This document shows positions 3,582-33,795 of a stretch of 64,000 bases of DNA, piece after piece. Position 1 is the first letter of the stretch, and each line of letters begins with the position of its first letter. Under the pieces are notes generated by a model. That model had not been told where the DNA came from. It saw nothing but the letters and a program-made list of their open reading frames with translations, and did not search any database. Source of the stretch: an uncultured virus (IMG/VR IMGVR_UViG_3300020197_002285) (Duplodnaviria > Heunggongvirae > Uroviricota > Caudoviricetes); the IMG/VR virus record IMGVR_UViG_3300020197_002285; one strand, written 5' to 3'. Made by a program: the position numbers and the translations under genes.

Positions 3582-3621
3582 GACAACTCCTCCTCCATGA
3601 GAAACTTTGAGAAACTTTGAG

Positions 3622-3820
3622 AAACTTTTGATCGCACAACTCGTTCATTTTACCACAGGATTTCGAATTTCGCAAGTCGGGATTCTGAACTGTTGGCTAG
3701 AGCGGCCCCTCATCCTTCTTGCGTGAAAGTACAAACTTTTGATCGCACAACTCGTTCATTTTACCACAGGATTTCGAATTTCGCAAGTCGGGATTCTGAA
3801 CTGTTGGCTAGAGCGGCCCC
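3622..3820. repeat. 88-bp direct repeat (3622-3709, 3733-3820) containing the csrA promoter, separated by a copy of part of the csrA 5' coding sequence
   Basis: Direct sequence comparison; 3709-3732 equals 3552-3575. Confidence 0.9.
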
Positions 3821-3902
3821 GCACACCGACATTTAATCCACGATCTACCATAACCACCCTGTCCATTTGCAAGGGCAGTTCCGATGACGTGATTTTCGAT
3901 TG

Positions 3903-18672: not shown

Positions 18673-19155
18673 TTATTTTAAGTCTGGCGGTAAAAATGTT
18701 CCCGGCAAAAAGTAAATGTTGATATTTTTAATGCCTGATCGTATCCATGCGTCCTCGATCAAAGGAAGTATGACGTTCCAACTTCCACCGGCCAAATTTG
18801 TGCCGAAAGCAGGAGCATGAATTTCGTATAATTCATCATTATTTTTAATTGTGTTTGCAACACTTGTTAGACAAGCCGCCAAATGATTATAAAAAAGAGG
18901 CCGTATTCCTCCTAATTCTTGTGCAATCATATTGCATATAAGAACATTGCCAGTTTTAACATAAATAACCTCACCCAACTCAAGTTGGGATTTAGACATA
19001 TACGACTGCTTTGCCATCGGAAAGTGTTTGGCGAGGGGAACAACAAAGCCCGCACCAAATTTTTTTTGATTGTTACACACATGCGGAATAACAACCAATT
19101 TATCCTTTACTTCCTTAATCTCAGCAAACAGATCGCCTTCAATGTATTTTATCAT
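18673..19155 (-). CDS. Macro domain protein (ADP-ribose processing, Poa1p-like)
   Basis: IKYIEGDLF, HVCN....GAGF, NMIAQ, P.FGT.LAGGSW. Confidence 0.85.
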   Translation of the reverse strand: MIKYIEGDLFAEIKEVKDKLVVIPHVCNNQKKFGAGFVVPLAKHFPMAKQSYMSKSQLELGEVIYVKTGNVLICNMIAQELGGIRPLFYNHLAACLTSVANTIKNNDELYEIHAPAFGTNLAGGSWNVILPLIEDAWIRSGIKNINIYFLPGTFLPPDLK

Positions 19156-19576
19156 TCAACTCTTCTCCCGGCCTTGCCTTGATAGCAGCGAACAAATCGC
19201 CTTCGATGTAGTTAATCTTCATGGTTTCCATGTTTCCTCTTGGTACGACTGCCGCCGCCAACATCGAAGACCGGCTGATTCCCGCACGGCAATGAATATA
19301 GACTGGATACTTTTTCATCATAGATTCGACAACTGCTACCGCCATCTTTAGCCAATCCATGCCGGGATATTGGCCATCTAAAATAGGCAAATGAACATAG
19401 GCTGCAAGGTTTTCAGGCATCAAAGCAAAATTGTCAGCTTGGCATTTCTTGTTATTGCCGTAGCTCGGCGGGTCTTGAGCGTGGAGGTACATTAAATTCA
19501 CAACAGCCCTGATCTGCTCCGGTCGTCGCTCCTTCGACATCGGACCCTGATATAGATTGTCGAGAATTTGAAACAT
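19139..19576 (-). CDS. Dual-specificity protein phosphatase, apparently C-terminally truncated
   Basis: VYIHCRAGISRS P-loop; tail runs into a duplicate Macro N-terminus (MKINYIEGDLF). Confidence 0.75.
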   Translation of the reverse strand: MFQILDNLYQGPMSKERRPEQIRAVVNLMYLHAQDPPSYGNNKKCQADNFALMPENLAAYVHLPILDGQYPGMDWLKMAVAVVESMMKKYPVYIHCRAGISRSSMLAAAVVPRGNMETMKINYIEGDLFAAIKARPGEELNDKIH

Positions 19577-19955
19577 TATTTTTCTCTGGTAACTTGGACA
19601 ATAAATTCATTTGCAGGTCTTTAACTTCATTCAGGGCTTTGAGCAAGCCATTTGTTAAATCAGTTTGGATGGCATAGAAATGCTTAATTCCGTCCAAAAA
19701 AATAGTCTCCACTGTCCAACTCATCAAGAGTTCACTGCCATCTTTGCGATAATTTATCGTGGTTCCTACCGCACCTTGAAAGATTCTCGGAGTCTTGCCG
19801 ATCAATTCCTCTAAAGTATACCCGGTCATTCGCAAACAATTTGGATTTGCATAAACTATTTTTGGGCCGGGTGGATCAATATGGGAATCTGTCAGCAATA
19901 TCGACAATTCCGAAACATCAGCAGAACTCTGAAATCTTTCCATGTCAGTGGCCAT
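19452..19955 (-). CDS. PAS-domain protein (possible internal deletion)
   Basis: IVYAN....MTGY..EE..GKTPR.FQG then directly INYRKDGS; TAAATA at 19961-19966. Confidence 0.7.
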   Translation of the reverse strand: MATDMERFQSSADVSELSILLTDSHIDPPGPKIVYANPNCLRMTGYTLEELIGKTPRIFQGAVGTTINYRKDGSELLMSWTVETIFLDGIKHFYAIQTDLTNGLLKALNEVKDLQMNLLSKLPEKNNVSNSRQSISGSDVEGATTGADQGCCEFNVPPRSRPAELRQ

Positions 19956-20058: not shown

Positions 20059-20208
20059 TTGGAATTCCATCACACCGATCCGAAAGCAAAAGATTTCTCT
20101 ATATCAAGAGCAAGGCTATTAAAACTCGACAACAAAACCAAAAAGGAATTGGATAAATGTCGATTAGCCTGTGCTAACTGCCACAGAGAAATCCATTGGA
20201 ATCAGAAG
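20059..20208 (+). pseudogene. C-terminal fragment of HNH endonuclease
   Basis: EFHH...KELDKC..ACANCHREIH; same family as 20570-20941; N-terminus absent. Confidence 0.65.
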
Positions 20209-20235
20209 TACCCCCGGCAGGACTCGAACCTGCGA
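20209..20235 (-). tRNA. 3' part (T arm and acceptor strand) of split tRNA-Arg(UCU)
   Basis: GCAGG TTCGAGT CCTGC CGGGGGT A; acceptor strand complements GCCCCCG at 21049-21055. Confidence 0.7.
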
Positions 20236-20516
20236 GGCAGGCAAGGTCTCTGCTATTGTTGGATGATAGACTATTCCCGACTCCATTTAACAATTGCGAA
20301 GACCAGTCTTGGTCGGAGAATTGCCCGAACACTTTTCATAAATGCGGGAAGTTAGATAACTGTCTCATCTAACGATATCCAATTAAACAGAGGGAAAGAT
20401 GCTTAACAGTAGTCACAATAGTAGCCACTTAATTTCCCCCCTCTGAATATGGGGTGTGGATAAAGAGCAACCCGGCAATGGGAAGGTTGTAGGGTTCGAG
20501 TCCCTATCAGTCCGCT
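20236..20516 (+). ncRNA. Candidate structured RNA ending in a tRNA-like T arm
   Basis: Several inverted repeats; TAGGG TTCGAGT CCCTA T arm near the 3' end; no convincing ORF. Confidence 0.35.
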
Positions 20517-20569
20517 TTATTCTTTCCACTTTCTGTGGTATAATCTAAGGGTTCGCACTCTCTTAGAGT

Positions 20570-20941
20570 ATGAGAAATGATGAAAACCAAAAAAGACTCA
20601 AGCGTGAATGGTATCATAGAAATCGTGAGGCTGTTCTTGCTCAACAAGCAGAAAAAAGAATAGAACTAAGAGAATGGTTCCAACAATACAAATCCACACT
20701 TTCTTGTGCAAAGTGTGGATTTAGTCATCCGGCAGCGATAGACTTTCACCATGAAGATGGTAGCGAAAAAGAGTTTCTTGTGTCGGCATTGATTGGAAGA
20801 AATCATAGTAAAAATCAGATATTGAAAGAAATTGCAAAATGCACTCCATTTTGCTCTAACTGTCATAGGATATTTCATTATGATGAACGAAACCAAAAAC
20901 GGGCCATTAGCTTAATGGATAAAGCAGTAGCAGCACCCTGA
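20570..20941 (+). CDS. HNH homing-type endonuclease whose 3' end runs into tRNA-Arg
   Basis: CAKCG, IDFHH, EIAKC..FCSNCHRIFH; own promoter TGTGGTATAAT at 20534-20544. Confidence 0.8.
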   Translation: MRNDENQKRLKREWYHRNREAVLAQQAEKRIELREWFQQYKSTLSCAKCGFSHPAAIDFHHEDGSEKEFLVSALIGRNHSKNQILKEIAKCTPFCSNCHRIFHYDERNQKRAISLMDKAVAAP

Positions 20942-20994
20942 AAGGTGAATAGTCTTCTAAGCTACCGATGGGGGTTCGATTCCCTCATGGCCTA
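20901..20994 (+). tRNA. tRNA-Arg(UCU) with 22-nt hairpin insertion at the anticodon stem/loop boundary
   Basis: Cloverleaf GGGCCAT/ATGGCCT, GTAGC [AGCACCCTGAAAGGTGAATAGT] CTTCTAA GCTAC, T arm GGGGG TTCGATT CCCTC. Confidence 0.85.
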
Positions 20995-21055
20995 CTTAGC
21001 TTGTTGCCATTCTAGGCCGTAAGGCAATTGCTCTAATCCACTGAGCTACGGGGGC
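20995..21055 (-). tRNA. 5' part of split tRNA-Arg(UCU) with 21-nt insertion at 34/35
   Basis: GCCCCCG TA GCTC AGTGGATTA GAGC A ATTGC CTT [ACGGCCTAGAATGGCAACAAG] CTAA G; A20 Arg determinant. Confidence 0.75.
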
Positions 21056-21219
21056 GTCACTCCAAAAAGGACTGCTAATTCATCGCTGACATACCAACCG
21101 GCTTGCTTGCCCTTTTCGGCACACTCTTCGTAAGATTCGCTGTCATTTTGTAACAAATCGGCAGAACAGGTTTCGCAATAGAAGCTGGAAAAACAATAAC
21201 GAAATTTGTCGTTCATAAG

Positions 21220-21287
21220 TAACCCCGACAGGACTCAAACCTGCATCTGTTTAGAAAACAGAGGCACTTCCTTTATGCCACGAGGTT
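21220..21287 (-). tRNA. Degenerate tRNA-Arg(UCU)-like gene
   Basis: AACCTCG/CGGGGTT acceptor, TCTGT TTTCTAA ACAGA; 1-nt variable loop, T loop TTTGAGT. Confidence 0.55.
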
Positions 21288-21290
21288 ATA

Positions 21291-21485
21291 TTGGTAGGTT
21301 ATCTGTGGTCCCGCTTCGCTCGTATTAGACTTATTCGTGCTAGACCGACTGTTATATCTAGCCTTATTTCGTCCGTTATGAGCAAAATCCCCACTCACGA
21401 CCGGCCTACCGGCGACGGAACGACTCCTGTCATTTCCCCCGAACCCTTTCGGTAGCCGGGGACAATCTTGTTCACCCACCCCAAC
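21291..21485 (-). ncRNA. Candidate about 190-nt structured ncRNA directly upstream of the tRNA-like gene
   Basis: Ends pair (GGTGGGT/ACCTACC); internal hairpins TCCCCGG/CGGGGGA, CCGG/CCGG, GTGAGT/GCTCAT, TCCGT/ACGGA, GCTAGA/TCTAGC. Confidence 0.5.
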
Positions 21486-21678
21486 CCTCTTTAATAAGTA
21501 CATAAAGAAAGTTGCGCATTGGGAAATGAGCGTCAAGCATTAGACAATTAACGTCGCTCGAACTCGACGTAATAATTGATTCTAAAATCCGTCGCTCCTG
21601 TCGGTCCAATATAATACTGCATTTTTGTCCCAGAATCAAACATCTTCGGCTTCGCTGCCATTACACCACCGGATAAAA

Positions 21679-22179
21679 TTAGCCAACCATATCACACACG
21701 ATATTGTTGGCATCATTCAGTTTTACCCAGAATCGTGTGCCACCGAACTTGGCAAGTTCAGGAGGAAGTTTTTTGTTTTTTGGAATTCTGAAAGTAATCG
21801 AATCAAATGCTTCACCGCCACGGCGAATATAAATTCGGTCAACAACGAGTGTTGTATTCTTTGGCAAAGTAACTCTCAACCAACTCTTGTCTCTGGCATT
21901 GGTAGCACGGAACGAAGAATAGGCTCGATTCAACTGTTCATCAGTCATCGCCCGATCCGTTCCTAGTTCAACACCGGAAACTCCATCAAAGTCTTCGGGG
22001 TCAAAACCCCACCAACAACGATGATAAGACTGACGACTATCGGGGTCATCGTCAATTTTTTTGGGTCCGAGAGCCTGCATCAAAGTTTTATTTCGACGCT
22101 CGAACTCCAACTTAAAGGTCCAATCCTCTGACAAAAGCAGGATAGTGCCGAGCCGTGGAATGAAGAGTTTACTTGGCAT
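21679..22179 (-). CDS. Hypothetical phage protein
   Basis: Start reassigned to MPSKLFIP. Confidence 0.55.
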   Translation of the reverse strand: MPSKLFIPRLGTILLLSEDWTFKLEFERRNKTLMQALGPKKIDDDPDSRQSYHRCWWGFDPEDFDGVSGVELGTDRAMTDEQLNRAYSSFRATNARDKSWLRVTLPKNTTLVVDRIYIRRGGEAFDSITFRIPKNKKLPPELAKFGGTRFWVKLNDANNIVCDMVG

Positions 22180-22519
22180 TTTTTTCCTGCATTTTCTTTT
22201 GGCATTCTTCGTTATAGCAAACGTATTTGCCGTCTTTTTGACGCCAGCCACACCATTCGTAATTGAAAACACACCCGCAATAGGCGCACATTTTGAAGAT
22301 TTCCTCTGGCATTTTTACTCCTATTATACCACGGATTACAAACGCTGTAAATCTTCGATACCCAAATCTTCGATACCCAAATCTTCTGCGGCAAAGACTT
22401 CTCCACGATCAACCACGGCAAGGACGGCTCTTACCTTAGCCCCAAAGGATTCCAACACCCTAAGTTGGCATGTACCAGAAATGTTAACTTATTCTTATCA
22501 GAGGGAACTCTCGGAGGCA

Positions 22520-22738
22520 TCATACCCAAGTCTCCACAATAACAGGATCGTCATTAGGGTGTCTGTCAATCTTCACTTTGCCTTCCGGCACAAATGCTCG
22601 AATTTCTTCAAGAGTTTTTGCAGTGTGATGTTTTTCAGTTGGGTGAGTATATCCGGGGCCAACTTCGTGTACCCTAACAACATAAAGATCAGGAATATTG
22701 TTTGTAATTACCCACATTTCAAGAATGTTAGAATCCAT
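22520..22738 (-). CDS. Hypothetical protein
   Basis: R.P.DDPVIVETWV C-terminus. Confidence 0.6.
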   Translation of the reverse strand: MDSNILEMWVITNNIPDLYVVRVHEVGPGYTHPTEKHHTAKTLEEIRAFVPEGKVKIDRHPNDDPVIVETWV

Positions 22739-22891
22739 TAGAAAGCCCCATCTGAAAGGTATGAATAATCTTGGCCGTCTTCGCCAAGAAATGAAATCAA
22801 CTTAGAAGAAAAACCACCCGACTCATCGAATCGAAGTGGCTTTTTAGAATCATCCACTACAATGCCGTCTCCCTGTCCTTCATTTGCAAAG

Positions 22892-22985
22892 AGCCAGCGG
22901 TCGGACTCGAACCGACAACCTGTTGATTACAATTTATAGGCTTCTTGGCCTGAATCAACTGCTCTGCCAATTGAGCTACACTGGC
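22892..22985 (-). tRNA. tRNA-Thr(UGU) with 21-nt hairpin insertion in the anticodon loop
   Basis: GCCAGTG/CGCTGGC, GTTGA T [TCAGGCCAAGAAGCCTATAAA] TTGTAA TCAAC, T arm GTCGG TTCGAGT CCGAC. Confidence 0.88.
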
Positions 22986-22986
22986 G

Positions 22987-23062
22987 GAACCAATTGCTGT
23001 TTTTCTCCTGTGACAATTAGCACAACGAATTTCGCACTTCAACAACTCTTTTTCTAAATTCT
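22987..23062 (-). pseudogene. HNH endonuclease C-terminal remnant abutting tRNA-Thr
   Basis: LEKELLKCEIRCANCHRRKT. Confidence 0.6.
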
Positions 23063-23141
23063 TTCTTGCTCTACCCGGAACATGAAAACGCCAACAAAAA
23101 TGGCAAGCGGAAATATTATTTTCAGAAAAATTGAGCTAGAG

Positions 23142-23221
23142 AGCGACATATGGGAATCATATGGGAATCGAACCCATTTTTCCAGCGTGGAAGGCTGGCC
23201 CGACCGTTAGGCCAATGTCGC
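23142..23221 (-). tRNA. tRNA-Gly(UCC), degenerate, with 11-nt tandem duplication after the T arm
   Basis: GCGACAT/ATGTCGC, CAGC CTTCCAC GCTG, duplicated ATGATTCCCAT. Confidence 0.6.
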
Positions 23222-23263
23222 ATAGTCTATTCTACCACAGGAAACTCAACCTGTAAACCGGAG

Positions 23264-23334
23264 AGCGGGATACGGAAATCGAACCCGTGCCCAAACCTTG
23301 GGAATGTTTTATTCTACCACTAAACTAATCCTGC
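23264..23334 (-). tRNA. tRNA-Gly(CCC)
   Basis: GCAGGAT/ATCCCGC T, loop TTCCCAA, T arm ACGGG TTCGATT TCCGT. Confidence 0.75.
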
Positions 23335-23340
23335 GTATAG

Positions 23341-24210
23341 TTAATTCGGCACCAACAAATTTTGCTTAATAAATGAATCAAAGAAAAATGGCCATGCCGG
23401 ACTGGTCGTATGGAAAATCTTCACAGGAGAAGATTTTAACTTATAAGTCTGAACATCTGACTTATCGAAATAATTACACATCAGGTTGTTTTCTAAAACA
23501 AACAAAGTACAAGCACACTCTTCACGATTGAGAGCATCTTCACGATGAGCGTACATTATTTCTGCCATCGGATGCTTTTTCAAAAGTAAACGATTGCAAT
23601 AACCCAATATCTGCTCGCCATATTTCGCCGCCGTACCATTGTTGAAAACTACAACTCCCGAATTAAAAGGCGACATTCTCACTTTTACAGGATTTGCTGG
23701 GTTCTTGTCTTTTTCATAATTAAAAACCCAAAAGGTTTGCTCGGTATAAGCCTGCTTGCTTTCTGCTGCCGAATAACTTTGCATGTAATCAGCAACAAAA
23801 TCTACTTTATTGTGATCTAACAATGAATCTAAATTGTCAAAAATAAAGGTGTCTACATCCAACAAAAGAACAGTTTCATCTTGAATTTCTTTTAGATAAA
23901 TTCTGTGTGTGGAGTTATAGCCGGTAAGCTGTTTGATGGGTGCTGGAACACGACGCAAATTTACATTCAATTCTTTACAAAGATCAAAGATTTCTGGCTC
24001 TTCAATCTTTAGATATTTCTTAGCATTATCGGCACTGATATATTGAGCCAAATTAGTTGATGAAACATAATTATCCGCACCGCCATCCTCGACGTAAAAC
24101 AAAGTAATTGGCAAATTTGGGTTATATTTTCTTAACAAACGGACACTAACAGAAAACATCCCACGATAAATGGGATTTTGATTCAATAAGTAAACACAGG
24201 ATTTTGACAT
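23341..24210 (-). CDS. Glycosyltransferase (GT8-like)
   Basis: LLLDVDT DxD motif, FNSGVVVF, KIFH. Confidence 0.7.
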   Translation of the reverse strand: MSKSCVYLLNQNPIYRGMFSVSVRLLRKYNPNLPITLFYVEDGGADNYVSSTNLAQYISADNAKKYLKIEEPEIFDLCKELNVNLRRVPAPIKQLTGYNSTHRIYLKEIQDETVLLLDVDTFIFDNLDSLLDHNKVDFVADYMQSYSAAESKQAYTEQTFWVFNYEKDKNPANPVKVRMSPFNSGVVVFNNGTAAKYGEQILGYCNRLLLKKHPMAEIMYAHREDALNREECACTLFVLENNLMCNYFDKSDVQTYKLKSSPVKIFHTTSPAWPFFFDSFIKQNLLVPN

Positions 24211-24220
24211 ATTTTTTCTC

Positions 24221-24934
24221 CTACCCGATAAAAGAGTTAACCTTATAAGTTTCTCTCGCCCATTGTTCAACAAGCATATCCTGATGCATTCTCTCGCCAA
24301 AGGGAGTAAATTGCCCCCGATGGACAACACCCGTAATAGGATACCAAAAATAATGATAAAAGTAAATGCCAGCTTGCGTAAATTGTTTAATTTTATAATC
24401 GCAAGCTATTTCTGCACTAAGACTTGAAGAAACAACTACTTCGGATATTTCCGGCTCAACAAGACATTTTACCAAGAAGTCCTTTTTCCAAAATCGAGCT
24501 TGTTGAGAAAACCTCCAATCACTTTTCACGTCAAATTGAAGAACGGGATTATTTAAAATTGAATATTCAGTTTGATTTAACTGATAATAAGGAAGACAAG
24601 GACTTACTTGCAAAGCGTCCCAGCCATTGCTTTCAAATGCCGAAAACAACTCATTGAACAACCGGGCCGACATAGGTGCTGTAGGCCAATATTCCTCTAA
24701 CATGTAAAACACATATTCACAATCCAAAGAATCAAGTATCTTTTCAAGACGGTAAATATAACTTCCCTTGCCAGTCTTGATCGAATGAAAAGGGGATTCA
24801 ATTTCCCCATCTTCTGTGCAGAAATAAATCGGCCAAGAAATAGAAAAATCCCAGAACTTTTTCATATAATGAACAAGTCCGGGCCAATATTGTTGATATT
24901 TATCACAAGTTTGAATTACGACAGCACCCTTCAT
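24221..24934 (-). CDS. Glycosyltransferase-like protein
   Basis: TCDKY..YW, YVFYMLEEYW, Q...WKK..L pattern. Confidence 0.5.
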   Translation of the reverse strand: MKGAVVIQTCDKYQQYWPGLVHYMKKFWDFSISWPIYFCTEDGEIESPFHSIKTGKGSYIYRLEKILDSLDCEYVFYMLEEYWPTAPMSARLFNELFSAFESNGWDALQVSPCLPYYQLNQTEYSILNNPVLQFDVKSDWRFSQQARFWKKDFLVKCLVEPEISEVVVSSSLSAEIACDYKIKQFTQAGIYFYHYFWYPITGVVHRGQFTPFGERMHQDMLVEQWARETYKVNSFIG

Positions 24935-25001
24935 ACTCTAAAAGAGTTTAAAGTGGAAGAGATTAGCAACAGCAAATACGGCCTTTGAAATAATCTGAGA
25001 A

Positions 25002-25409
25002 CTAGCCTTCGCCACCAATTTCGTGTTTGTAAACTTCATGGCGGTCATCACAATCGTCCTCATCCCGATAATAATTATTTTCAACCAAACGTTTTTGCGT
25101 TTCTTGAAAATGGGCCTCATTCATTAACGTCCATACCGAATTTTGGCCAAATATCACGCAAAGGTAAAAATTCTCGTCATCCCGTTTAAAAGGGATGTTG
25201 TAGGCTTCAAAATAAGAATTCTTATCTTGAAATTTGTATACATTATCCCAACCGCCACCCTCTTTATGGAAAACTTCTTCAGTAAATTCCCTAAACTCAT
25301 CAATTGTAAATTCCGAGTATTGTTCAGGAAGATAAGCAACACATTCACCATCAAGTGCTTGATGCTTTCTCAAGGCGTTAAGTATCCGTGGTTCGCATGG
25401 TAAGCTCAT
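25002..25409 (-). CDS. Hypothetical protein
   Basis: ORF with AGGAG RBS. Confidence 0.55.
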   Translation of the reverse strand: MSLPCEPRILNALRKHQALDGECVAYLPEQYSEFTIDEFREFTEEVFHKEGGGWDNVYKFQDKNSYFEAYNIPFKRDDENFYLCVIFGQNSVWTLMNEAHFQETQKRLVENNYYRDEDDCDDRHEVYKHEIGGEG

Positions 25410-25447
25410 TCGTTGTCTCCTTAGCCGCTTTAAAAATCAACGAAAAA

Positions 25448-25840
25448 TCAGTATCGCCAAGGTGTATAAAATTGCAAATCAATTTCTTTGGACCTGTCAA
25501 GCATCATACAATTCATTGAAGTTGGTTGCATTTCTGCTACATAAGTAAACACGACTTGTGGATCAAATTCCGCACAAGAATATACGTCCAATTGAGCTAA
25601 TGACGGTTGTTGTTTGTCCCAACAATGAATCGAAATGTGCGAGGTTTCGATCATCACAATTCCGGCAATGCCATTATTTCCTTCCGACTCCACATAATCA
25701 ACATGCGGACCACCACTCTTACAGATTTTCATATTAATGGCATTAACAAGTCTACGAAGCCAATCTTTTGTTTTTTCTACATCCGTGAAAGGATTATTGA
25801 CATTACAACGAATAATTAAATGCTTATGTTTTACTTCCAT
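25448..25840 (-). CDS. speD: S-adenosylmethionine decarboxylase-like proenzyme (pyruvoyl type)
   Basis: HLII, IETSHISIHCW, LDVYSC. Confidence 0.85.
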   Translation of the reverse strand: MEVKHKHLIIRCNVNNPFTDVEKTKDWLRRLVNAINMKICKSGGPHVDYVESEGNNGIAGIVMIETSHISIHCWDKQQPSLAQLDVYSCAEFDPQVVFTYVAEMQPTSMNCMMLDRSKEIDLQFYTPWRY

Positions 25841-25953
25841 ATTTTTTACCGTTTGATGACTTCTACGAAGTCATTTCTATTTTACAAATCACAAAACCTA
25901 TAAGCGTTAATTCCAGTCAAACTGACAGTATATGAAATTTCTTGTTGTTTTAG

Positions 25954-26247
25954 CTAAACAATAATTTGAGAACTATTAGACGCAATTACAATTCCACTGC
26001 CAAATTTTTCATTATATGAATTGACAACTTCTTCTTCTGGCTCCATTACATAGATGATATGCTTGTCATCTATCGAAAAAGTATCTGACTTACTCAATGG
26101 GGAAAATGGCATCATACCAATTCCAGCTTGGGTCATAAGTAGTTTAACAGGGTTTTTTAACACATGTTTTATGTGATTGTCCGTTGAATTTAATTCATGT
26201 TCAGAAATTAATTCTTCCCCACTCACCATCTTAATTAGCTTGACCAT
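25954..26247 (-). CDS. Conserved T4-like phage small protein (probable Sm-like fold)
   Basis: KLIKMVSGEELI, LKNP, Y..KFGSGIV. Confidence 0.55.
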   Translation of the reverse strand: MVKLIKMVSGEELISEHELNSTDNHIKHVLKNPVKLLMTQAGIGMMPFSPLSKSDTFSIDDKHIIYVMEPEEEVVNSYNEKFGSGIVIASNSSQIIV

Positions 26248-26292
26248 AAAGTTCTCCTTTAACCAATTATTATAAAGAGGAAAATTCTAAAG

Positions 26293-26499
26293 TCAAAGTA
26301 TTTTTTGTTTGAAATTTTTTCTAATTTTGAATTCTTTAGAAATAGAGTTTACAATGTCTGACCCTGTATATTCAAACCAACAAGGGACAATTCCGTGTAT
26401 TGTCAAGACAATAACAGCAATAAGCAGTTGAAAAACGAATGCAAAGGCGACACACATGTGTTGGAAGTAGCCAACGTTTTGTTCTTTAAGATGTTTCAT
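26293..26499 (-). CDS. DUF6356-like small membrane protein
   Basis: HLKEQNVGYFQHM...IHGIVP.WF..TGS; exact TATAAATA at 26504-26511. Confidence 0.7.
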   Translation of the reverse strand: MKHLKEQNVGYFQHMCVAFAFVFQLLIAVIVLTIHGIVPCWFEYTGSDIVNSISKEFKIRKNFKQKIL

Positions 26500-26640
26500 A
26501 AATTATTTATACATCGACGGCGTAAAAATACCTACTTTGCCTTGTATCGGGCAGGGCGAACCTCTTTACATAGGGGTACTTTTACCGTTCTCAGAAATCT
26601 AGGGAAATCTGGGTTTGACGAATCAACCAGTTTTCAGCCG

Positions 26641-27170
26641 TTATACGCTGAAAACCTTTAATGGATTGATCCGTACTGGCATTGCGGCAATGCTCCTATC
26701 AGGGAAAGTCTCGTAGACTTTATCCCCGATTACTTTTCGCCCTATGTTGAGCGAACCATTTACATCAGCATGAATAGGTCGGAACGTATGATATATCCCC
26801 TTACTCCTCGTCCCACTCAAGATAGGTGGCTCTGCATCCCAAACAGGTAGTTTGTCATGGTCAAGGAAACTTGCCTTGCTGGTGTATGCCTCTTCCGTGA
26901 ACTCCACTGAGATGCCAACCAGTGTTGCCTTGTACTTGACCTTCTCCAAGAATCGCCAGAACGGAATATACTGGAAGTTTTGTTTTTGTGGTTTCCGCAT
27001 CTTGACTTCTTGCTTCCAGCCATCATTCTTGCCGATGATGATGCGACCAATGTCATGCTTGACGCACAAGTCAACGATTAACTTGGACGCATGATGAAAG
27101 TAGTTTTCAATCTGGAAGTAACGCTTCCTGCTCGTTCTTTTGTTCGGACGCTTGTTGTATAACCTTTTGA
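26641..27170 (-). pseudogene. tnpB: C-terminal half of IS200/IS605 TnpB
   Basis: YFHHASK, IIIGKN..WKQ, EEAYTSKASFLD, IHADVNGSLNIGRK. Confidence 0.8.
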
Positions 27171-27177
27171 TGGATTA

Positions 27178-27447
27178 GTGAAGCACACAGGAGTTGCCGA
27201 GCATCCCCTTTATGGATTTGACATTGTTTATCCAACTCTTAATTTCACTGGAAAAAGTCTTTTGGTCATAGGTTCTCATGCCGACCGAAGGTTAGTGAGA
27301 GAACAGGCGAGAAACGCTGGTATGCAAATTATTTTTGTAGACCCAGAACTTTACGAAGGACAGCCTTATGCGGTAGAAGACGCTCAGGACAACGATTTGA
27401 TAATTAGACTTAAAGCGTCTGAGTTTGCCGAGCAAATTTTAGCATAA
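27178..27447 (+). CDS. Fragment resembling a SIR2-like C-terminal Rossmann segment
   Basis: LLVIGS...IIFVDP; appears 5'-truncated. Confidence 0.3.
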   Translation: MKHTGVAEHPLYGFDIVYPTLNFTGKSLLVIGSHADRRLVREQARNAGMQIIFVDPELYEGQPYAVEDAQDNDLIIRLKASEFAEQILA

Positions 27448-28107
27448 AATGATTGCTTGTTTCGTTGGAAGATACACAAGATTGTCTTGGTAGAATTCAT
27501 CCACTGCTTTCTTGGCTCCTTTGCTTACAAAATCGCCGTAATCATCATATACAATAATTCCGCCTTTGTTCATTCTAGGATATATGAACTCAGAGACTTG
27601 CATGATTGATTTATAAGTATCGCAATCTACATGCACAAAAGAAAACTTTTCATTTTCAATTTTTTTGAGAGTATCATCAAATTTTCCTTTGTGTATTTTC
27701 ACAAAGTTCATGGCTCCGAATTCCTCTTGAATTCTTTCAAATGATATTCCTGATCGTTTGCCAAAAGCTCCTACTTCCCAAAAATTGTCTTTTTCAGAAG
27801 TCTCAGGAATTCCTGTGAATGTATCCAGCAAATGAAGTGTTTTTGATCTTCCGGTTAGATGCTTGGCTATAATTCGAGCCGTGCCGCCTTTCCAGACGCC
27901 AAATTCTGCGACAGCCCCATCGCATTTAAATGTTTGTTTTAGGAATTCAATTAGTGTGAAAACTACAACTGGCGGGGACGCCGATTGGGATGCCAGATTG
28001 AAAAACTTCTCTTCTCTCCACGGCTGAAACAGCGATTGAAAGTCAGGCCAGGGTTGCCAAAACTCTGCTAATGGCCGATACAAATCTTGTTTATTGACAC
28101 GAAGCAT
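27439..28107 (-). CDS. TylF/MycF-family O-methyltransferase
   Basis: AEFGVWKGG, DTFTGIP, GKFDDTL, FVHVDCD.Y, GGIIVYDDY. Confidence 0.88.
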   Translation of the reverse strand: MLRVNKQDLYRPLAEFWQPWPDFQSLFQPWREEKFFNLASQSASPPVVVFTLIEFLKQTFKCDGAVAEFGVWKGGTARIIAKHLTGRSKTLHLLDTFTGIPETSEKDNFWEVGAFGKRSGISFERIQEEFGAMNFVKIHKGKFDDTLKKIENEKFSFVHVDCDTYKSIMQVSEFIYPRMNKGGIIVYDDYGDFVSKGAKKAVDEFYQDNLVYLPTKQAIILC

Positions 28108-28131
28108 TGATTTGTCTCACCACTTCTTCTG

Positions 28132-28800
28132 CTATTGGACAGTCGGGATAATTTCCCAATTATTGATGCTCTTGAGGATACGACCATTAACCAATATGGG
28201 TTTAGCCAGTTGGTTTGAAGTTATCGTAGCTAAATTGTTTACACCAATGTCTATACACGCAACATTGTTTTTACTGATTTTTTCTTTCTTGCTTTCTTGT
28301 TCGTACTGTACGTCCACCACGAAACCAAAAGTCTTGGGCGTTAGGATGACTTGTTTGTACTGCCTCTGGCTTTGGATGCCGAAGCAATCATTAGTGGGCG
28401 TGATGGTGTTCGGTTTCTGCTTGACCTTGTTCTGCCCTCCCTTGATGGTTTCGTTGTAGAAGATGACTTGTGCTAGTTTGTCCTTGTAGTACGGAGGTTT
28501 GGGCATTCTCCTGAACTTGCTTGGGTCTTTTTTGTGGGCATTGAGTGTTTTCTTGAAGTTGGTCCAGTCTGTGAGGCACTTGCGTATGGTTTGCTTCGCC
28601 GTCTTGGTATTATGCAGGTTCCTGAAGCAATCCTCACCCCTGACGGCAGCGATGAGCATGTTGATGTCGGGCAATATCGTATTGCCGAACCACGCACGTC
28701 GCATGAGGAAATTGCACTTGTTGTACAGTTCCTTGCTTTCGGTGCAGAGTCGGACGATTTCAGGCGTCCCTCGTATTTGGTGTCGCTCAACCAGTAGCAT
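28132..28800 (-). pseudogene. tnpB: N-terminal half of IS200/IS605 TnpB
   Basis: MLLVERHQI, SKELYN, PKPPYYK, IDIGVNNLAT, NGRILKSIN. Confidence 0.8.
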
Positions 28801-28842
28801 ACCTTTATATAGAGGGTTAGTCCTGAATTTTTGAGGCTGAAA

Positions 28843-29100
28843 TCACGGATTTGACAAGATTTTTCTTGAGGTATCCTTAGATTTCTCCAGATTTCGGTTC
28901 AACTGTTCCAAACCCTTTTCAACGTACAAGTTTTCCATATCGCAATCCTCTTCGTCCCCTATAACGAATTGATGATTGCAGCTATGGCACTCCACTGCTT
29001 CTACATCAGAAACTGTTTGATCGCTCACGTCGCCGTTACAAACCCAATTAGGTTTATCACACTTAGGACATGCGATCTTATACCACGTTTCGATGTACAT
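28843..29100 (-). CDS. Small Zn-ribbon protein
   Basis: CPKC...CHSC. Confidence 0.55.
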   Translation of the reverse strand: MYIETWYKIACPKCDKPNWVCNGDVSDQTVSDVEAVECHSCNHQFVIGDEEDCDMENLYVEKGLEQLNRNLEKSKDTSRKILSNP

Positions 29101-29149
29101 AAAAACAACCTACGGTTTGGGCTGCTTCTTCCGACCTGACCCTGAGAAA

Positions 29150-29560
29150 TTAGACTTCCCTTGAGAACTGGTCACAAAACGAGTTCTTCTCACGACCAAT
29201 CCACTTGGCATCCCAATTCATGTTTTCAAGAATCTGTTGGGCCTCTTTGTAATAAGGCACGAGAGTGTCTTTTTTACATTGATAGAACTTCAACAACTGA
29301 TTGATAACCAATTCGGAATCACCGTAAATGGTTAGTTGTCCATTCCATCCTGCATCTTTCAAATATCGCAATCCAACGACGACGCCCGCCCACTCTGCAA
29401 TATTGTTTGTGGCACCTTCACCCTTCAAAGCAATACCATTGCCTTTGCCGACTTCTTGCCCATTCTCATCGAGCAATCGAAAGGCATAAGAAGCTGTACC
29501 ACCGGGATTTCCACCCTTGATACTGCCATCAAAATATAAATCTAACTTTTCTGGTAGCAT
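29150..29560 (-). CDS. Ribonuclease HI family protein
   Basis: YFDGS..GNPG, TNNIAEW, GDSELVINQ, WIGREKN..CD. Confidence 0.9.
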   Translation of the reverse strand: MLPEKLDLYFDGSIKGGNPGGTASYAFRLLDENGQEVGKGNGIALKGEGATNNIAEWAGVVVGLRYLKDAGWNGQLTIYGDSELVINQLLKFYQCKKDTLVPYYKEAQQILENMNWDAKWIGREKNSFCDQFSREV

Positions 29561-29694
29561 GTTGGTTCCCATTCTTCGTAACATGAGCAATCGTATAGAT
29601 TTGCCCATTTAGTTTGTCTTCGGGGTCTGGATGCAAATAAGTAAGCCCTTCTATTGCTAGAAGGGCATGTTCCAAACGCTCAAGTCGGTCTGTA

Positions 29695-29931
29695 TCACGA
29701 ATCGGGATCATAAAATTCCACCCTGACGGATTTGGAGCGGTTTGTTTTAGCAAAGGCTTTGAATTTTTTGAGGTTAGACTCGAAAGCGGATTGTGTCTTA
29801 AAAGAAAAAGATAAATCCCTTCGGCCATCCAAAAAAGAATAACCACTTCCACCATTATTTTGAGGGGCGATTTTTCTAATCAATTCATCAAATGCCCCGT
29901 CATGACCCTTGTAGCTCACAACAATATTCAT
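29695..29931 (-). CDS. Hypothetical protein
   Basis: Start reassigned to MNIVV. Confidence 0.5.
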   Translation of the reverse strand: MNIVVSYKGHDGAFDELIRKIAPQNNGGSGYSFLDGRRDLSFSFKTQSAFESNLKKFKAFAKTNRSKSVRVEFYDPDS

Positions 29932-30599
29932 GATTTCACTCGTAAGGTTCATACCAATCCTCAGAAGAATCAGGATGGAGTCTAACACATTTCTGCGAGC
30001 AAGAACAACCCCCGTTTGGGAAGCTAACCCAATTACCTTTTTGAAAAGATTCTTGAACGTCCTTGTAAACTCCACCTGACATATCTGCGGCACCACCGGG
30101 AGGAATCCAGAAGAAACACTTTTCTTTAGGACACTCTAGTAGGACGATTTCGAGATTTTTTTGGCCTAAAAGTACGAGTAGGTTTGGTGATCCTTAATCC
30201 TTCCCCGTAAACTTCTATTTCGCCCGGTTCTCGGTAAAGACTGATTAAGAAGCGAATAACTGGCGATGTTTGATCCAGATTGTCTCGCATCTTGTTTAAC
30301 TTCTCAGAAGCCTCAATCCACAGATGCTTCTCTTTTTCATTAGTACATACAACTTTATACATTTCACACCTTCTTAGTAGTTGCGGCTCTGACGATGCCA
30401 ATCTTTACCCATTTAGGCTCTTTGTACCGCTTGCTGTGGTACTCTCCACCAAGGAGTTAAGCCACTCATTAAAACAAATTGGCTTGCCAAAGGCAAGTCA
30501 ATTTGTAGCGGTCAGTTCTCGTAATACGGGAATAGAAATGCCTAAGAAATCCATCTTGCATCATCAATAGCACAATGCCTTTTTTTGGATGATAACCAA

Positions 30600-30670
30600 T
30601 GGAGCTATCGAGAATCGAACTCGAACTTCTTGGTTGCAAACCAAGCGTCATCCCTTTAGACCATAGCCCC
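30600..30670 (-). tRNA. tRNA-Ala(UGC)
   Basis: GGGGCTA/TAGCTCC A with G3.U70, CTTGG TTTGCAA CCAAG, T arm TTCGATT. Confidence 0.88.
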
Positions 30671-30824
30671 AGTGGTGGAGGCTGAATCCACACTTCTCAC
30701 ACTTCATCGTGCATTTTAGGTCTGTCAGCCATTCTCGACTCTTGCAATATAGTAACTTGCAACAATTTTCTCTTTAAATAAATCCAGAAACTTCTATAAT
30801 AGGTAAGTTGAAGTTGTCTAGAAC

Positions 30825-30918
30825 GGGCGATTAACTCAGCGGCTAGAGTACCTGCTTTTTTGCCTAGACCGGCATCAAAACACGCAGGGAGTCGGGGGTT
30901 CAAATCCCTCATCGCCCA
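30825..30918 (+). tRNA. tRNA-Val(UAC) with 21-nt hairpin insertion at 34/35
   Basis: GGGCGAT/ATCGCCC A, CCTGC TTT [TTTGCCTAGACCGGCATCAAA] ACAC GCAGG, T arm GGGGG TTCAAAT CCCTC. Confidence 0.85.
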
Positions 30919-31004
30919 CTGTTAGTTAAACGAAGAGGTAGGTGGGACTCCTAATTCCTTGAAGGATATAAAATGCCCGTAGGTTTGGTGTAAATAAAAA
31001 ATAT

Positions 31005-31038
31005 GCGGGTGTAACTCAGCGATAGAGTTCATCATTGC
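31005..31038 (+). pseudogene. 5' half of tRNA-Gly-like gene, truncated in the anticodon loop
   Basis: GCGGGTG TA ACTC AGCGATA GAGT T CATCA TTGC, then RBS of next gene. Confidence 0.5.
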
Positions 31039-31049
31039 TTGGAGGAAAA

Positions 31050-31379
31050 ATGGAAATAGAAGGTTATGGCTGTGAATGGGATGCTGAACTTTGTGGTGGT
31101 CCGGCTGACGGTTGCGTTGATCGAGTTATTCAAGAGAATGGCGAACATCCACCAATATATTTCAAAAAGTTATTGAATGAATATCCTCAAAGAAAAACTT
31201 TAGGCGAGAAATTACTTGAACATTGGGGTACTCGTCATCTTGATGATTCCGAAAAAGTCGCAATTTATCGGCTTCGGGGAGAACCAGAAGAAATTGATGA
31301 AGACGCCGATGCTTGTCTTTATGATTATTTAGAGACGACCAACATGGGTGATGCGAGAGAGAAATATGGATTCAAATGA
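31050..31379 (+). CDS. Hypothetical protein
   Basis: GGAGG RBS; GGPADG motif. Confidence 0.6.
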   Translation: MEIEGYGCEWDAELCGGPADGCVDRVIQENGEHPPIYFKKLLNEYPQRKTLGEKLLEHWGTRHLDDSEKVAIYRLRGEPEEIDEDADACLYDYLETTNMGDAREKYGFK

Positions 31380-31962
31380 AATAGCTGCGTATTACGATCA
31401 ATCTTGCCGGGATTCTCAATATGGTTGGCAAGCCTCTTTTCTTTTCTCAGAGGACGATCAATACGTCAGGTTTGCAACCGTCAACAGCATAATTGCTCCC
31501 AATTCATCAGTATTAGACGTGGGCTGCGGCCAAGGCGATTTTTGTCCCTTCGCCAAGACTAAAAATCTGCTTTACACCGGTTTAGATATAAGCGGTGAAA
31601 TGATTCAAAAAGCAAAGCAGAAATTCCCAATGGCCAATTTTGTGCAGTGGGATTTTGTGTCTAATCCTATCGAAGAAAAATTTGATTATGTCATGGCTCT
31701 TGGCACTTTCAGCTTGAAGGTTGAAAACCAGTATGAGTATATCGAGAAGGCTTTGATACAGTGTTTTGTAAATTGCAAAAAAGCGGTAGCTGCCACTATC
31801 CTTACAACAGTTTCTGACGTAAAATACGAGAGCGATGAGTCCAAGTTGTTTTACTATGATCCTGCGAAATTGTTTGCGATTGCATCAAATATTACGCCGT
31901 ATTTGATATTTAATACAGCTACTTTGCCTTGTGAAGTCACTTTATATATGTACAGGTTCTAA
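31366..31962 (+). CDS. Class I SAM-dependent methyltransferase
   Basis: VLDVGCGQG, GLDIS..MI, FDYVMALGTF. Confidence 0.85.
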   Translation: MDSNEIAAYYDQSCRDSQYGWQASFLFSEDDQYVRFATVNSIIAPNSSVLDVGCGQGDFCPFAKTKNLLYTGLDISGEMIQKAKQKFPMANFVQWDFVSNPIEEKFDYVMALGTFSLKVENQYEYIEKALIQCFVNCKKAVAATILTTVSDVKYESDESKLFYYDPAKLFAIASNITPYLIFNTATLPCEVTLYMYRF

Positions 31963-32034
31963 TGCACAAGATTAAATATGATACTGCGGTGTATTATATC
32001 TACTGTGGGGGGCAAGGGACAAAATAGGAAAAGA

Positions 32035-32328
32035 TCACTTTTTCTTCTTTTTTCTCAATTTAGTTATCTTGTGTGGCCTCAAAACTGTTCCAGTCATTTC
32101 TGAAATATATTCAGGGCCAATATAAACATATCGAGAAACCCCACCCCGTTCAAATTGAACGTATATTCCTTTTCCTTGGGGATCGACGCCGGTAAAAACT
32201 CCAACGCCTCTTTCACCCATTCCAATTTTTGTGCCGGGATAATCTTTAGATGGATAATAAGGACCACCGGAAACTCTTATTTTGTCTCCGATTTCAAGTG
32301 TCACTTTTTCGGATAGTCGAAAACCCAT
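32035..32328 (-). CDS. Hypothetical protein
   Basis: ORF, basic C-terminus. Confidence 0.55.
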   Translation of the reverse strand: MGFRLSEKVTLEIGDKIRVSGGPYYPSKDYPGTKIGMGERGVGVFTGVDPQGKGIYVQFERGGVSRYVYIGPEYISEMTGTVLRPHKITKLRKKKKK

Positions 32329-32418
32329 CCATCTTCAACCAATGTTAAACGAGGAGTTTTGGAGTTGAATCCCAAAATGCATTGTGACACTATAACAAAT
32401 CCATTAAAAAGAAAAAAG

Positions 32419-32859: not shown

Positions 32860-33795
32860 ATGAATTTTAAAAACTGGATATTTTATCAAGAATCAATTGA
32901 ATCAAGAGTGCCGCAAATAAGTTACCAAGAAGTTATGAATCGCAAACTTTTTGGTCCAGTTTATCATGGAACATCCGAAGAAAAAAGGCAATCTATTGCT
33001 GATACTGGATTTAAAGTATTTGTTGGTGGTGCAAGACAAGGCGAAATTTCTCATGGATATGAATCAGGTTCATATGGTTCTACTGGAATTTCTGCGCCTA
33101 TACACCACTTAGGATATGGTGTTTATTTCACCACGGTTAAGAGCATTCTTCGCTCTTATAATTATGGATCAACAAAAGGCTTGAAAGAATATTATCTTGA
33201 TGTTCCTAGATTAGAAACCATAAATTTTGGAAGTCCAAACACAATGATGAAATGGTGGAGATCAAATGGCTACAATATGGATGAAAGTGGCTGGGCGGAT
33301 CACGATCATGAACAAAAAAGAGTTGAAGCAACAAAGAATCTAACGGATGTGTTGAGATCCAAATATGATGCCGTCTATTTCAAAGGTAAAGGACTTACAA
33401 GATTATTAGACGGAAATCAAATATGTGTGTTTGATCCTCATAGAATCTACGAATTAAACACAGAATTGGCTGGAGAAGGTGAGGTGTCGCCAAACGATAG
33501 ATTCGTTGTTAAAAACACAAATGTAGTTGTAAGAATTAAAGCCGTGACGCAGTCTTATTTCTCAGTATCATTCAAAGATCCTGAAAATCAAATTAAAAAG
33601 ATATACGGCAAAGAAATCATAGATGATGCAATAAGAAAGCATCCGGGATTAGAAGAAAGAATAATGCAAAATTACAATACAGATAGAGAGTCTGCATTGG
33701 AAATTTATTTAAACTACTACATCGACAAAGGACTTAAATATAATTTTCCAAAAAAATGGCTTGGTAGAAAATTGAAAAAAGGCGAAAGACCGTGA
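32860..33795 (+). CDS. ADP-ribosyltransferase-like protein (polyvalent ART type)
   Basis: VYHGT, GYGVYFT, YDAVYF, QICVFDP motifs; FKNWI N-terminus. Confidence 0.6.
   Translation: MNFKNWIFYQESIESRVPQISYQEVMNRKLFGPVYHGTSEEKRQSIADTGFKVFVGGARQGEISHGYESGSYGSTGISAPIHHLGYGVYFTTVKSILRSYNYGSTKGLKEYYLDVPRLETINFGSPNTMMKWWRSNGYNMDESGWADHDHEQKRVEATKNLTDVLRSKYDAVYFKGKGLTRLLDGNQICVFDPHRIYELNTELAGEGEVSPNDRFVVKNTNVVVRIKAVTQSYFSVSFKDPENQIKKIYGKEIIDDAIRKHPGLEERIMQNYNTDRESALEIYLNYYIDKGLKYNFPKKWLGRKLKKGERP

Follow-up and report, generated by a model that had tools for sequence, protein, structure and literature searches.

Overview of the Locus

The DNA analyzed here, a stretch of 64,000 nucleotides (nt) from IMG/VR record IMGVR_UViG_3300020197_002285 (hereafter the window), is a portion of a large lake-water phage. 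It contains genes for a methionyl-tRNA synthetase, PTH2, Ro60, an NAD-dependent DNA ligase, sigma factors and TnpB elements, together with nine tRNA-type genes. The subject of this report is a family of mini-inserts, each 21–22 nt long with a predicted hairpin, located in the anticodon loops of several of these tRNA genes. Three insert-bearing genes (t1, t3 and t4) are intact, and a fourth insert is located in t2, a split tRNA-Arg(UCU) (Table 1). A preliminary description had counted four tRNA genes with anticodon loops of 28–29 nt. This holds for t1, t3 and t4, whereas the fourth, on the minus strand, is a dead 5′ fragment; its 21-nt insert at 34/35 is present as described, but it is not a gene, and neither ARAGORN (also with introns allowed) nor Rfam detects it.

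Several other records are compared with the window below. G002 is a 436-kb IMG/VR contig, G003 is a 90-kb fragment and G001 is a record reached via Ro60, with estimated completeness values of 85%, 18% and 37%, respectively. The ligase-like and phosphoesterase genes of the window have counterparts in G002 and G001 (34–44% identity), and these common genes indicate that G001, G002 and the window belong to a related group of huge phages. L481 is a metagenome contig of a relative, in which the glycosyltransferase beside the tRNA genes is 71% identical at the amino acid level to that of the window. L480 is a separately stored metagenome contig with a 100% identical query protein, possibly from the same sample as the window assembly. 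X14 and X20 are two of the four lake metagenome DNA runs whose contigs were compared with the window. Positions 20500–23500 gave no match to GenBank phage DNA.

Table 1. Coordinates of the insert-bearing tRNA genes, their mini-inserts and associated features. Coordinates refer to the window.
Feature	Coordinates	Strand	Evidence
t1, tRNA-Arg(UCU), intact cloverleaf, 29-nt anticodon loop	20901..20994	+	Rfam RF00005 51.6 bits; ARAGORN
t1 mini-insert, 22 nt, border of anticodon stem and loop at position 32 (31/32)	20932..20953	+	sequence and register
t2 5′ fragment of resident tRNA-Arg(UCU): acceptor 5′ strand, D arm, anticodon stem 5′ strand, loop	20995..21055	-	sequence
t2 mini-insert, 21 nt, CTT/CTAA (34/35)	21000..21020	-	register; 14/21 identical to Val insert
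t2 3′ remnant: variable-loop end, T arm, acceptor 3′ strand, discriminator	20209..20235	-	acceptor pairs with 5′ fragment
t3, tRNA-Thr(UGU), intact cloverleaf, 28-nt anticodon loop	22892..22985	-	Rfam RF00005 57.8 bits; ARAGORN
t3 mini-insert, 21 nt, 32/33	22933..22953	-	sequence and register
t4, tRNA-Val(UAC), intact cloverleaf, 28-nt anticodon loop	30825..30918	+	Rfam RF00005 56.3 bits; ARAGORN
t4 mini-insert, 21 nt, anticodon positions 34/35	30859..30879	+	single 21-column alignment gap
Promoter-like site, 24 nt upstream of t4	30773..30800	+	TTTAAA, 16 nt, TATAAT; 10/12 matches; consensus match alone
t5, third Arg(UCU)-type tRNA, uninterrupted, short variable loop	21220..21287	-	Rfam 44.6 bits
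Free-standing HNH endonuclease gene, 123 aa, reads into t1	20570..20941	+	PHROG phrog_2255, E 4.4e-25
Open reading frame (ORF), C-terminal half of second HNH endonuclease, overlaps t2 remnant	20059..20355	+	phrog_2255, E 1.6e-16, profile 125-179/211
HNH gene remnant, CxxC and CxxC-x-NCH, stop-to-stop frame, reads into t3	22986..23135	-	six-frame translation, by eye
G002 tRNA-Arg(UCU) insert, 21 nt at 34/35			gene 57.6 bits
G003 tRNA-Phe(GAA) insert, 22 nt at 32/33			gene 56.8 bits

Three Intact Insert-Bearing tRNA Genes

The Rfam matches of t1, t3 and t4 to RF00005, which has a gathering score of 29 bits, are full-length tRNA matches of 94–95 nt, and the extra letters in these alignments (24–29) all lie within the anticodon loop. 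The position of the insert is clearest in t4. Its exons match the annotated 72-nt tRNA-Val of the cultured cyanophage S-RIM50 near letter for letter, with a sole gap of 21 columns at TTT/ACAC, exactly where the preliminary description had placed the Val insert. Deletion of these 21 nt from t4 yields the loop and exons of the annotated cyanophage tRNA-Val. Likewise, other tRNA-Val genes on contigs from the four lake metagenome runs diverge from the window at 30858 and 30880, and read TTT-ACAC without an insert. Just downstream of t4, positions 31007–31042 (+) carry a Val-like tRNA 5′ half, consisting of the acceptor strand, the D arm and the start of the anticodon stem. This half continues into an ORF (31035–31379), and the X14 relative lacks positions 30921–31042.

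For t3, annotated tRNA-Thr genes of Cellulophaga phages share 91% identity with the 3′ half. The insert coordinates given earlier are retained, but the placement at 32/33 is ambiguous by 1–2 nt (31/32 to 33/34), with the product unchanged. The earlier claim that removal restores a canonical 7-nt loop fitting the tRNA body is thus borne out by the S-RIM50 alignment for Val and by the Cellulophaga phage tRNA-Thr genes for Thr. ARAGORN with introns allowed also gives alternative placements with Met-CAU and Lys-UUU anticodons; these were rejected, as they are incompatible with the tRNA bodies. The identity of t1 is based on the loop-terminal CTTCTAA and on the ARAGORN call of Arg(tct) with a 22-nt intron at position 32, in agreement with the insert at the stem/loop boundary noted before. 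A comparison of t1 with GenBank phages gave no match.

The cognate codons of the three tRNAs are used frequently in the 43 ORFs counted, where 26% of Arg codons are AGA, 28% of Thr codons are ACA and 19% of Val codons are GTA. As in t4, a promoter-like site precedes the Thr gene of L481, as judged by eye.

The mini-inserts are not an assembly artefact, because L480 carries tRNA genes of equal 95-nt length at the corresponding places, and because at least half of the sampled window words are present in 13 of the 24 listed DNA runs (7 of the 24 are possible sources of the window, and the runs are not all independent).

Architecture and Distribution of the Insert Family

Each unit starts with 2 nt, continues as a hairpin whose stem has 4 bp and whose loop has 6 nt, and ends in an A-rich tail of 5–6 nt. 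The Val and split-Arg inserts, both at 34/35, are identical at 14 of 21 positions, which supports the homology proposed for them. Every insertion observed falls within the 5′ half of the anticodon loop (31/32, 32/33 or 34/35), and their flanks share no sequence; the position thus differs between tRNAs, as had been noticed. When seven inserts from four tRNA types are placed in register, 27 of the 28 stem cells are paired, and all four pairs (4/4) have changed on both sides. None of 500 shuffles reached so high a value, and sliding the partner strand left at most 39% of the cells paired. This covariation test is partly circular, as two of the seven inserts were chosen for having the hairpin shape, but the shared architecture with compensatory stems claimed at the outset is upheld. 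Judged from their sequences, the mini-inserts form one homologous family.

The mini-insert family is rare. Two IMG/VR scans for class I tRNAs with about 21 extra nt gave at least 119 and at least 116 loci, and only the G002 and G003 genes share the architecture among the matches listed. Most of the other long loops listed were rejected, as they either represent eukaryote-like introns (37/38) of tRNA-Tyr genes from giant-virus bins or have no relation to the family. An IMG/VR search with a 17-base core motif of the insert gave 120 loci, none of them in tRNA genes, and exon-anchored IMG/VR searches gave 33 loci for Thr and 26 for Val, all chance matches outside tRNA genes. An IMG/VR search with the Arg 34/35 pattern recovered G002 alone. 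The bacterial and archaeal species genomes yielded at least 120 loci, namely class II tRNA-Ser, random DNA and a few archaeal introns, with no bacterial mini-insert among the matches listed, which is a weak negative. Within the window, a search for copies of the Val insert with up to 3 mismatches found none elsewhere. A relaxed core motif found two known inserts and three one-mismatch sites outside tRNA genes, and the structural motif was barely enriched (6 matches, t3 included, vs. 1.5 expected).

Two similar tRNA genes were left out of the family. In the 95-nt tRNA of G001 (56258–56352; L361 159–253; 52.7 bits), the 29-nt anticodon loop contains a hairpin with an A-rich tail, but no excision would yield a 7-nt loop with U33, and the gene was excluded from the family and from the covariation count. 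A phosphoesterase homologue lies 2.4 kb upstream of this gene. Similarly, an 88-nt tRNA of G002 with a 13-nt extra hairpin (L358) offers no removal leaving a U33 loop. G002 also contains a tRNA-like gene (171306–171421; L669 807–922) with an insert of about 42 nt in the D-loop that forms a long predicted hairpin, which is another kind of interruption.

Sequence Changes in Insert-Bearing Genes

The ortholog of t3 in L481 (58.2 bits) keeps its insert at the same place. The two inserts are identical at 19 of 21 positions, with one change in the loop, one in the tail and none in the stem; L481 has an extra T at the 3′ border. The exons differ at 5 of 73 positions, and all of these differences preserve or improve pairing, including two compensatory T-stem pairs and the change of U6·G67 to C6–G67. 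Because the L481 ortholog keeps the insert while its stems change only in a pair-preserving manner, the comparison argues for a functional insert-bearing Thr gene, since a working RNA would be expected to change in this way. The use of the cognate codons and the promoter-like sites fit this reading as well. Among the Arg genes, those with an insert are also more canonical (51.6 bits for t1 and 57.6 bits for that of G002) than the uninterrupted Arg genes (44.6 bits for t5 and 28.3 bits for that of G002, the latter below the cut-off).

The Split tRNA-Arg Locus and HNH Genes

The 5′ fragment of t2 lies head to head with the 3′ end of t1 and stops five nt past its own insert. The two halves of t2 are 785 bp apart and enclose an HNH cassette that also carries t1; the opposite strand between them contains the HNH gene at 20570–20941, tRNA-like debris and t1. 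The CxxC, HH and NCH motifs of this HNH protein are invariant across 53 aligned homologues, and the stop codon of its gene (20939–20941) falls in the hairpin loop of the t1 insert. The debris at 20440–20520 (+) comprises a D-arm-like piece, a hairpin of 3 bp and 6 nt at the place of the anticodon arm, and a good T arm; the window scans gave neither an ARAGORN call nor a gathering-level Rfam match for it.

Relatives of the phage have other alleles at this locus. In an X20 contig, position 20235 is joined to 21021 via 12 letters, forming an uninterrupted tRNA-Arg(UCU) without the cassette and without the mini-insert, and contigs of other runs link the t2 3′ remnant to 21021–21036. The L481 allele has an intact CTTCTAA loop without a mini-insert, but HNH-bearing DNA in reverse orientation interrupts it past position 47 of the variable loop. 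Because the breaks in the window and in L481 differ while the X20 allele is intact, the t2 locus has been hit repeatedly by HNH cassettes, in two arrangements. The t2 mini-insert itself is present or absent among close relatives, and is absent in X20 and L481. In both X14 and X20, position 21055 is joined to 21286, so that 21056–21285 with t5 is absent.

Next to t5, the stretch 21288–21530 (-), which corresponds to L481 2078–2290, is a noncoding segment of some 210 nt that has tRNA genes on either side and is separated by 4.3 kb from the Ro60 gene. It is about 88% identical in L481 although the neighboring protein is only 71% identical, and it has a long predicted fold with two compensatory pairs. 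A comparison of this segment with Rfam gave no family match. The segment may specify a structured RNA, which possibly partners Ro60 in the manner of a Y RNA.

HNH genes or their remnants are located directly upstream of three of the six insert-bearing tRNAs examined, with an intact gene at t1 and remnants at t3 and in G002. The remnant adjoining t3 (22986–23135) gave no family match, and that of G002 is an HNH-like remnant between two tRNAs immediately upstream of the insert-bearing Arg gene. Relatives of the HNH protein were considered at 80 IMG/VR loci of 575 confirmed; four of these adjoin tRNA genes, and none of the four has a mini-insert.

Comparison with Known Intron and Element Classes

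Rfam searches of 20500–23500 and 30400–32400, at the gathering score and at E values up to 1, gave tRNA matches and one weak Tymo_tRNA-like match, but no intron family. Group I introns have a conserved ribozyme core (P1–P9), follow a 5′ exon that ends in U and themselves end in G (omega-G). Group I introns were rejected, as the units are 21–22 nt long, have no Rfam intron match and end in G in only one of seven cases. On register, the last letter is G in two of the seven inserts (t2 and t1), but the full 22-nt insert of t1 ends in T, so that only t2 remains. The 5′ exon ends in T in t4, t2, G002, t3 and L481, and in C in t1 and G003.

Introns of the bulge-helix-bulge (BHB) type were rejected likewise. 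Minimum free energy folds of six pre-tRNAs, as well as drawing by hand, place the hairpin inside the loop, and no BHB motif could be drawn; together with a length far too small for a ribozyme, this agrees with the earlier view that neither known intron type fits. In the members at 34/35, loop nt 32–34 can pair with the last three nt of the insert, as judged by eye (3/3 in t4, 3/3 in t2 and 2/3 in G002). In t2, C32 is matched by a G replacing A, which amounts to an exchange of a U-A for a C-G pair. The resulting 3-bp helix is absent in t1, t3 and G003, and in t4, t2 and G002 it sets the junctions in a staggered arrangement at the helix ends, not in 3-nt bulges. Palindromic mobile elements of the REP, MITE or RPE kind were also rejected, since no dispersed copies were found in the window, and there are no terminal repeats and no target duplication.

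Possible Origin and Fate of the Mini-Inserts

With slightly under even confidence, we favor the reading that the mini-insert is a mini-intron, removed from the pre-tRNA by enzymes and kept in tRNA clusters alongside HNH homing genes. The insert would be transcribed within the pre-tRNA and would fold as its own hairpin, with a 4-bp stem, a 6-nt loop and an A-rich 3′ tail, in the 5′ half of the anticodon loop. A structure-specific endoribonuclease may read the hairpin and tail, rather than the position in the tRNA, and excise the insert. The tRNA halves would then be re-ligated to give normal Arg-UCU, Thr-UGU and Val-UAC decoders for heavily used codons. As DNA, the units probably persist and spread together with the free-standing HNH homing-endonuclease genes of the tRNA cluster, and an interrupted anticodon region may escape the cleavage that hits uninterrupted alleles, in the manner of “collaborative homing.” The idea that the inserts block HNH cleavage had been put forward in the preliminary description, and it gains circumstantial support from the HNH genes and remnants directly upstream of three of the six tRNAs. 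A wider version is conceivable, although we hold it with some doubt: phages or their bacterial hosts would have a non-ribozyme, non-BHB form of tRNA splicing, in which an endonuclease excises the hairpin with its tail from any site in the 5′ half of the anticodon loop and a ligase closes the loop, the mini-intron would confer immunity to free-standing HNH homing endonucleases, it could pass between unrelated tRNAs, and its mobility would be at the RNA level and resemble reverse splicing. The occurrence of the Val and Arg inserts at the same position, with their 14/21 identity, would point to such mobility.

Several observations weigh against a spliced mini-intron. In each of the three checkable cases, the genome has another gene for the anticodon concerned (Arg-UCU in the window, namely t5; Phe-GAA in G003; Arg-UCU in G002); isoacceptor duplicates are common in these phage tRNA sets, and the spare Arg copy of G002, at 28.3 bits, is below the cut-off. 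One copy of the insert sits in a dead gene (t2). The T-stem differences between t3 and L481 could have arisen via recombination with an uninterrupted allele instead of evolution in place. The tail has 5 or 6 nt, and L481 has its extra T, so that no splice site lies at a fixed distance from the hairpin. EndA (PF01974) and RtcB (PF01139) were searched in G001, G002 and G003 and found in none of the three, and neither is among the Pfam matches of 76 window ORFs; the EndA search detected the protein in four archaea and in none of ten bacteria used as controls. We know of no enzyme that would excise such an insert. The 24 listed runs include no RNA run, and splicing is what we infer. As to the link with homing, three of the six insert-bearing tRNAs examined (t4 and those of G003 and G001) lack an adjoining HNH gene, and the junction of the t2 HNH cassette, at about 47/48, is 13 nt from the mini-insert.

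The same facts can be read as the work of a tiny selfish or “immunity” element that acts at the DNA level, is tied to HNH homing and is never removed, the tRNAs being inactive passengers and decoding being done by other copies or by the host. We regard this as rather unlikely. Such an element would account for the HNH genes or remnants upstream of three of the six tRNAs, for an insert in a split, dead gene, for the second isoacceptor gene in each of the three checkable cases, and for the presence or absence of the t2 insert among close relatives. However, the interrupted genes keep perfect cloverleaves, and the ortholog pair differs by pair-preserving changes only, while the “spare” Arg copies are the less canonical ones (28.3 and 44.6 vs. 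57.6 and 51.6 bits). A purely DNA-level element also gives no reason for a conserved, covarying hairpin with an A-rich tail, and it would have to do without a common target, terminal repeats, target duplication or spread beyond anticodon loops.

Conservation of both body and insert would also fit insert-bearing RNAs that act unspliced, with the hairpin taking the place of the cleavable loop, either as tRNA-like decoys for host anticodon nucleases and other tRNA-targeting defences or as regulators, which we consider quite improbable. Known anticodon nucleases cleave at 33/34 and 34/35; inserts of the 34/35 class interrupt the anticodon and would destroy both of these sites, and Ro60, a binder of structured and tRNA-like RNAs, is encoded 4 kb away. 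Yet the insert occurs in four tRNA identities, so that as many different targets would be required, no defence or counter-defence gene is linked to it, and its removal restores perfect loops matching each body, which a decoy does not need. Finally, relaxed BHB-type introns cut by an archaeal/eukaryal-like endonuclease that either comes from the host or is encoded in phage DNA outside the sampled part, are very improbable. The 3-bp helix of the 34/35 class does set the junctions on opposite strands in a staggered manner, and it is flanked by a 4-nt bulge and, at its other side, by an internal loop. But this helix has 3 bp instead of 4 bp, its junctions lie at the helix ends and not inside 3-nt bulges, and the second “bulge” is a two-sided internal loop. 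Moreover, the members at 31/32 and 32/33 (t1, t3 and that of G003) lack such a helix, and the three related phage records contain no EndA homologue by a search whose control was positive in the four archaea and in 0/10 bacteria.

Similarity to Described Systems

Archaeal and eukaryal tRNA introns are spliced by proteins, with a BHB motif recognized by the EndA/Sen endonuclease and with RtcB or Trl1 as the ligase. The BHB motif consists of a 4-bp helix between two 3-nt bulges, one on each strand, and a splice site lies in each bulge. The phage inserts resemble these introns in being short and non-catalytic, in their location in or near the anticodon loop, sometimes at a non-canonical position, and in the cut-and-rejoin enzymes that they would need. 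Unlike them, three of the six phage members have neither a BHB nor a relaxed BHB motif and the rest have a 3-bp look-alike, the inserts sit 5′ of or inside the anticodon and not at 37/38, and the setting is a bacteriophage. To our knowledge, protein-dependent tRNA splicing is regarded as an archaeal and eukaryal trait, and bacteria and phages are known only for self-splicing introns. Since a 21-nt insert is too small for a ribozyme, its removal would call for a novel pair of endonuclease and ligase acting on anticodon loops in a bacterial cell. The family thus represents either a form of tRNA splicing not yet described for bacterial viruses or a tiny insertion of a new kind, associated with selfish genes whose products cut DNA. 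If the inserts are spliced, the account of the origin of tRNA splicing would change, and a very small, portable and structure-defined signal for RNA excision would become available. If they are never spliced, they would be the smallest known structure-conserved insertions targeting one loop of one class of RNA gene, and would still show how homing nucleases and phage tRNA clusters contend with each other.

The group I intron of cyanobacterial tRNA-Leu(UAA) is located at 34/35, the position occupied in the Val, split-Arg and G002 genes. Group I introns of bacterial tRNA anticodon loops are self-splicing and some hundreds of nt long, and can be mobile via homing endonucleases (PMC3984707). The same 2014 review states that the phage introns observed by then were all in protein-coding genes despite the many phage tRNA genes (PMC3984707). 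Group I introns and the present inserts therefore share the anticodon-loop site, but large ribozymes face units of 21–22 nt.

T4 SegB is reportedly a homing endonuclease in a phage tRNA cluster. In collaborative homing, a free-standing endonuclease targets the insertion site of a neighboring intron that lacks an ORF, as in the case of S-PM2 psbA/F-CphI and in Aeromonas phage Aeh1 (PMC3984707). The phage inserts recall this system in that a free-standing HNH gene or a remnant of one adjoins three of the six interrupted tRNA genes examined, uninterrupted t2 alleles exist in relatives and nuclease cassettes reshape the tRNA cluster. They differ from it in that the insert is not a self-splicing intron and that the mapped cassette junction (~47/48 of t2) is off the mini-insert site.

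A literature search for such hairpin mini-inserts found no description of them; PMC12619734 and PMC7886860 do not bear on the subject. The nearest published case is that of the “possible introns” in tRNA genes of Lak megaphages, which are described as enigmatic and of a mechanism not known (Devoto et al. 2019, PMC6784885). Table S6 of that paper gives coordinates for 14 possible introns, 13 of which are 52–141 nt long and one 23 nt (PMC6784885). The features described for the Lak introns are also found here, namely an interruption of the anticodon loop in huge-phage tRNAs, no match to an Rfam family, conservation, and presence or absence among relatives (PMC6784885). The 23-nt entry (Table S6 row 165-167, Leu-like) combines a stem of 4 bp with a loop of 8 nt and an A-rich tail of 6 nt, and its removal after U33 would leave a Leu-UAA loop; the likeness in architecture and side to the present inserts is by eye only (PMC6784885). 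In contrast, the Lak introns are mostly longer, several contain tRNA-like pieces, and they were placed at 37–41 by the eukaryotic mode of tRNAscan (PMC6784885). Neither a hairpin family nor covariation nor a link to nucleases is defined for them (PMC6784885).

Candidate Partner Proteins

The preliminary description had named the ligase with only a nucleotidyltransferase (NTase) domain, the phosphoesterase and Ro60 as candidate partners in splicing; the first two were not supported. The family of the NTase-only ligase (1520–2380) has at least 330 members, which are about 215 aa long and are encoded on huge-phage contigs of up to 673 kb. Its structure model (mean predicted local distance difference test score of 80, core above 90) matches ATP-dependent DNA ligases in their adenylation domains, and its top 50 structure matches include no RNA ligase. 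It was rejected as a splicing partner, as the family is far wider than the inserts and the fold matches DNA ligases. The phosphoesterase is likewise common to the relatives and has no specific link to the inserts. The product of the “phosphatase” gene at 18673–19155 is a macrodomain protein, also with no specific insert link, and was rejected as well.

Other Features of the Window

The macrodomain gene is one of three overlapping genes at 18673–19955 (-), which encode a macrodomain protein, a dual-specificity-phosphatase-like protein and a PAS-domain protein. Together with an ADP-ribosyltransferase-like gene at 32860–33795, this trio may form an ADP-ribose-related module.

Positions 26570–29142 form a 2.6-kb segment with two TnpB (OrfB_IS605) fragments around a TylF-type methyltransferase gene. 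The X14 and X20 relatives do not have this segment, which is a strain-specific insertion. A complete TnpB gene is located at 39731–40900. In the intergenic region at 3590–3830 (+), a direct repeat of about 111 bp occurs twice and is preceded by a short tandem AGAAACTTTG repeat. The PhoH-like gene at 59980–61668 (-) contains LAGLIDADG/Hom_end domains in its middle, which suggests an intein.

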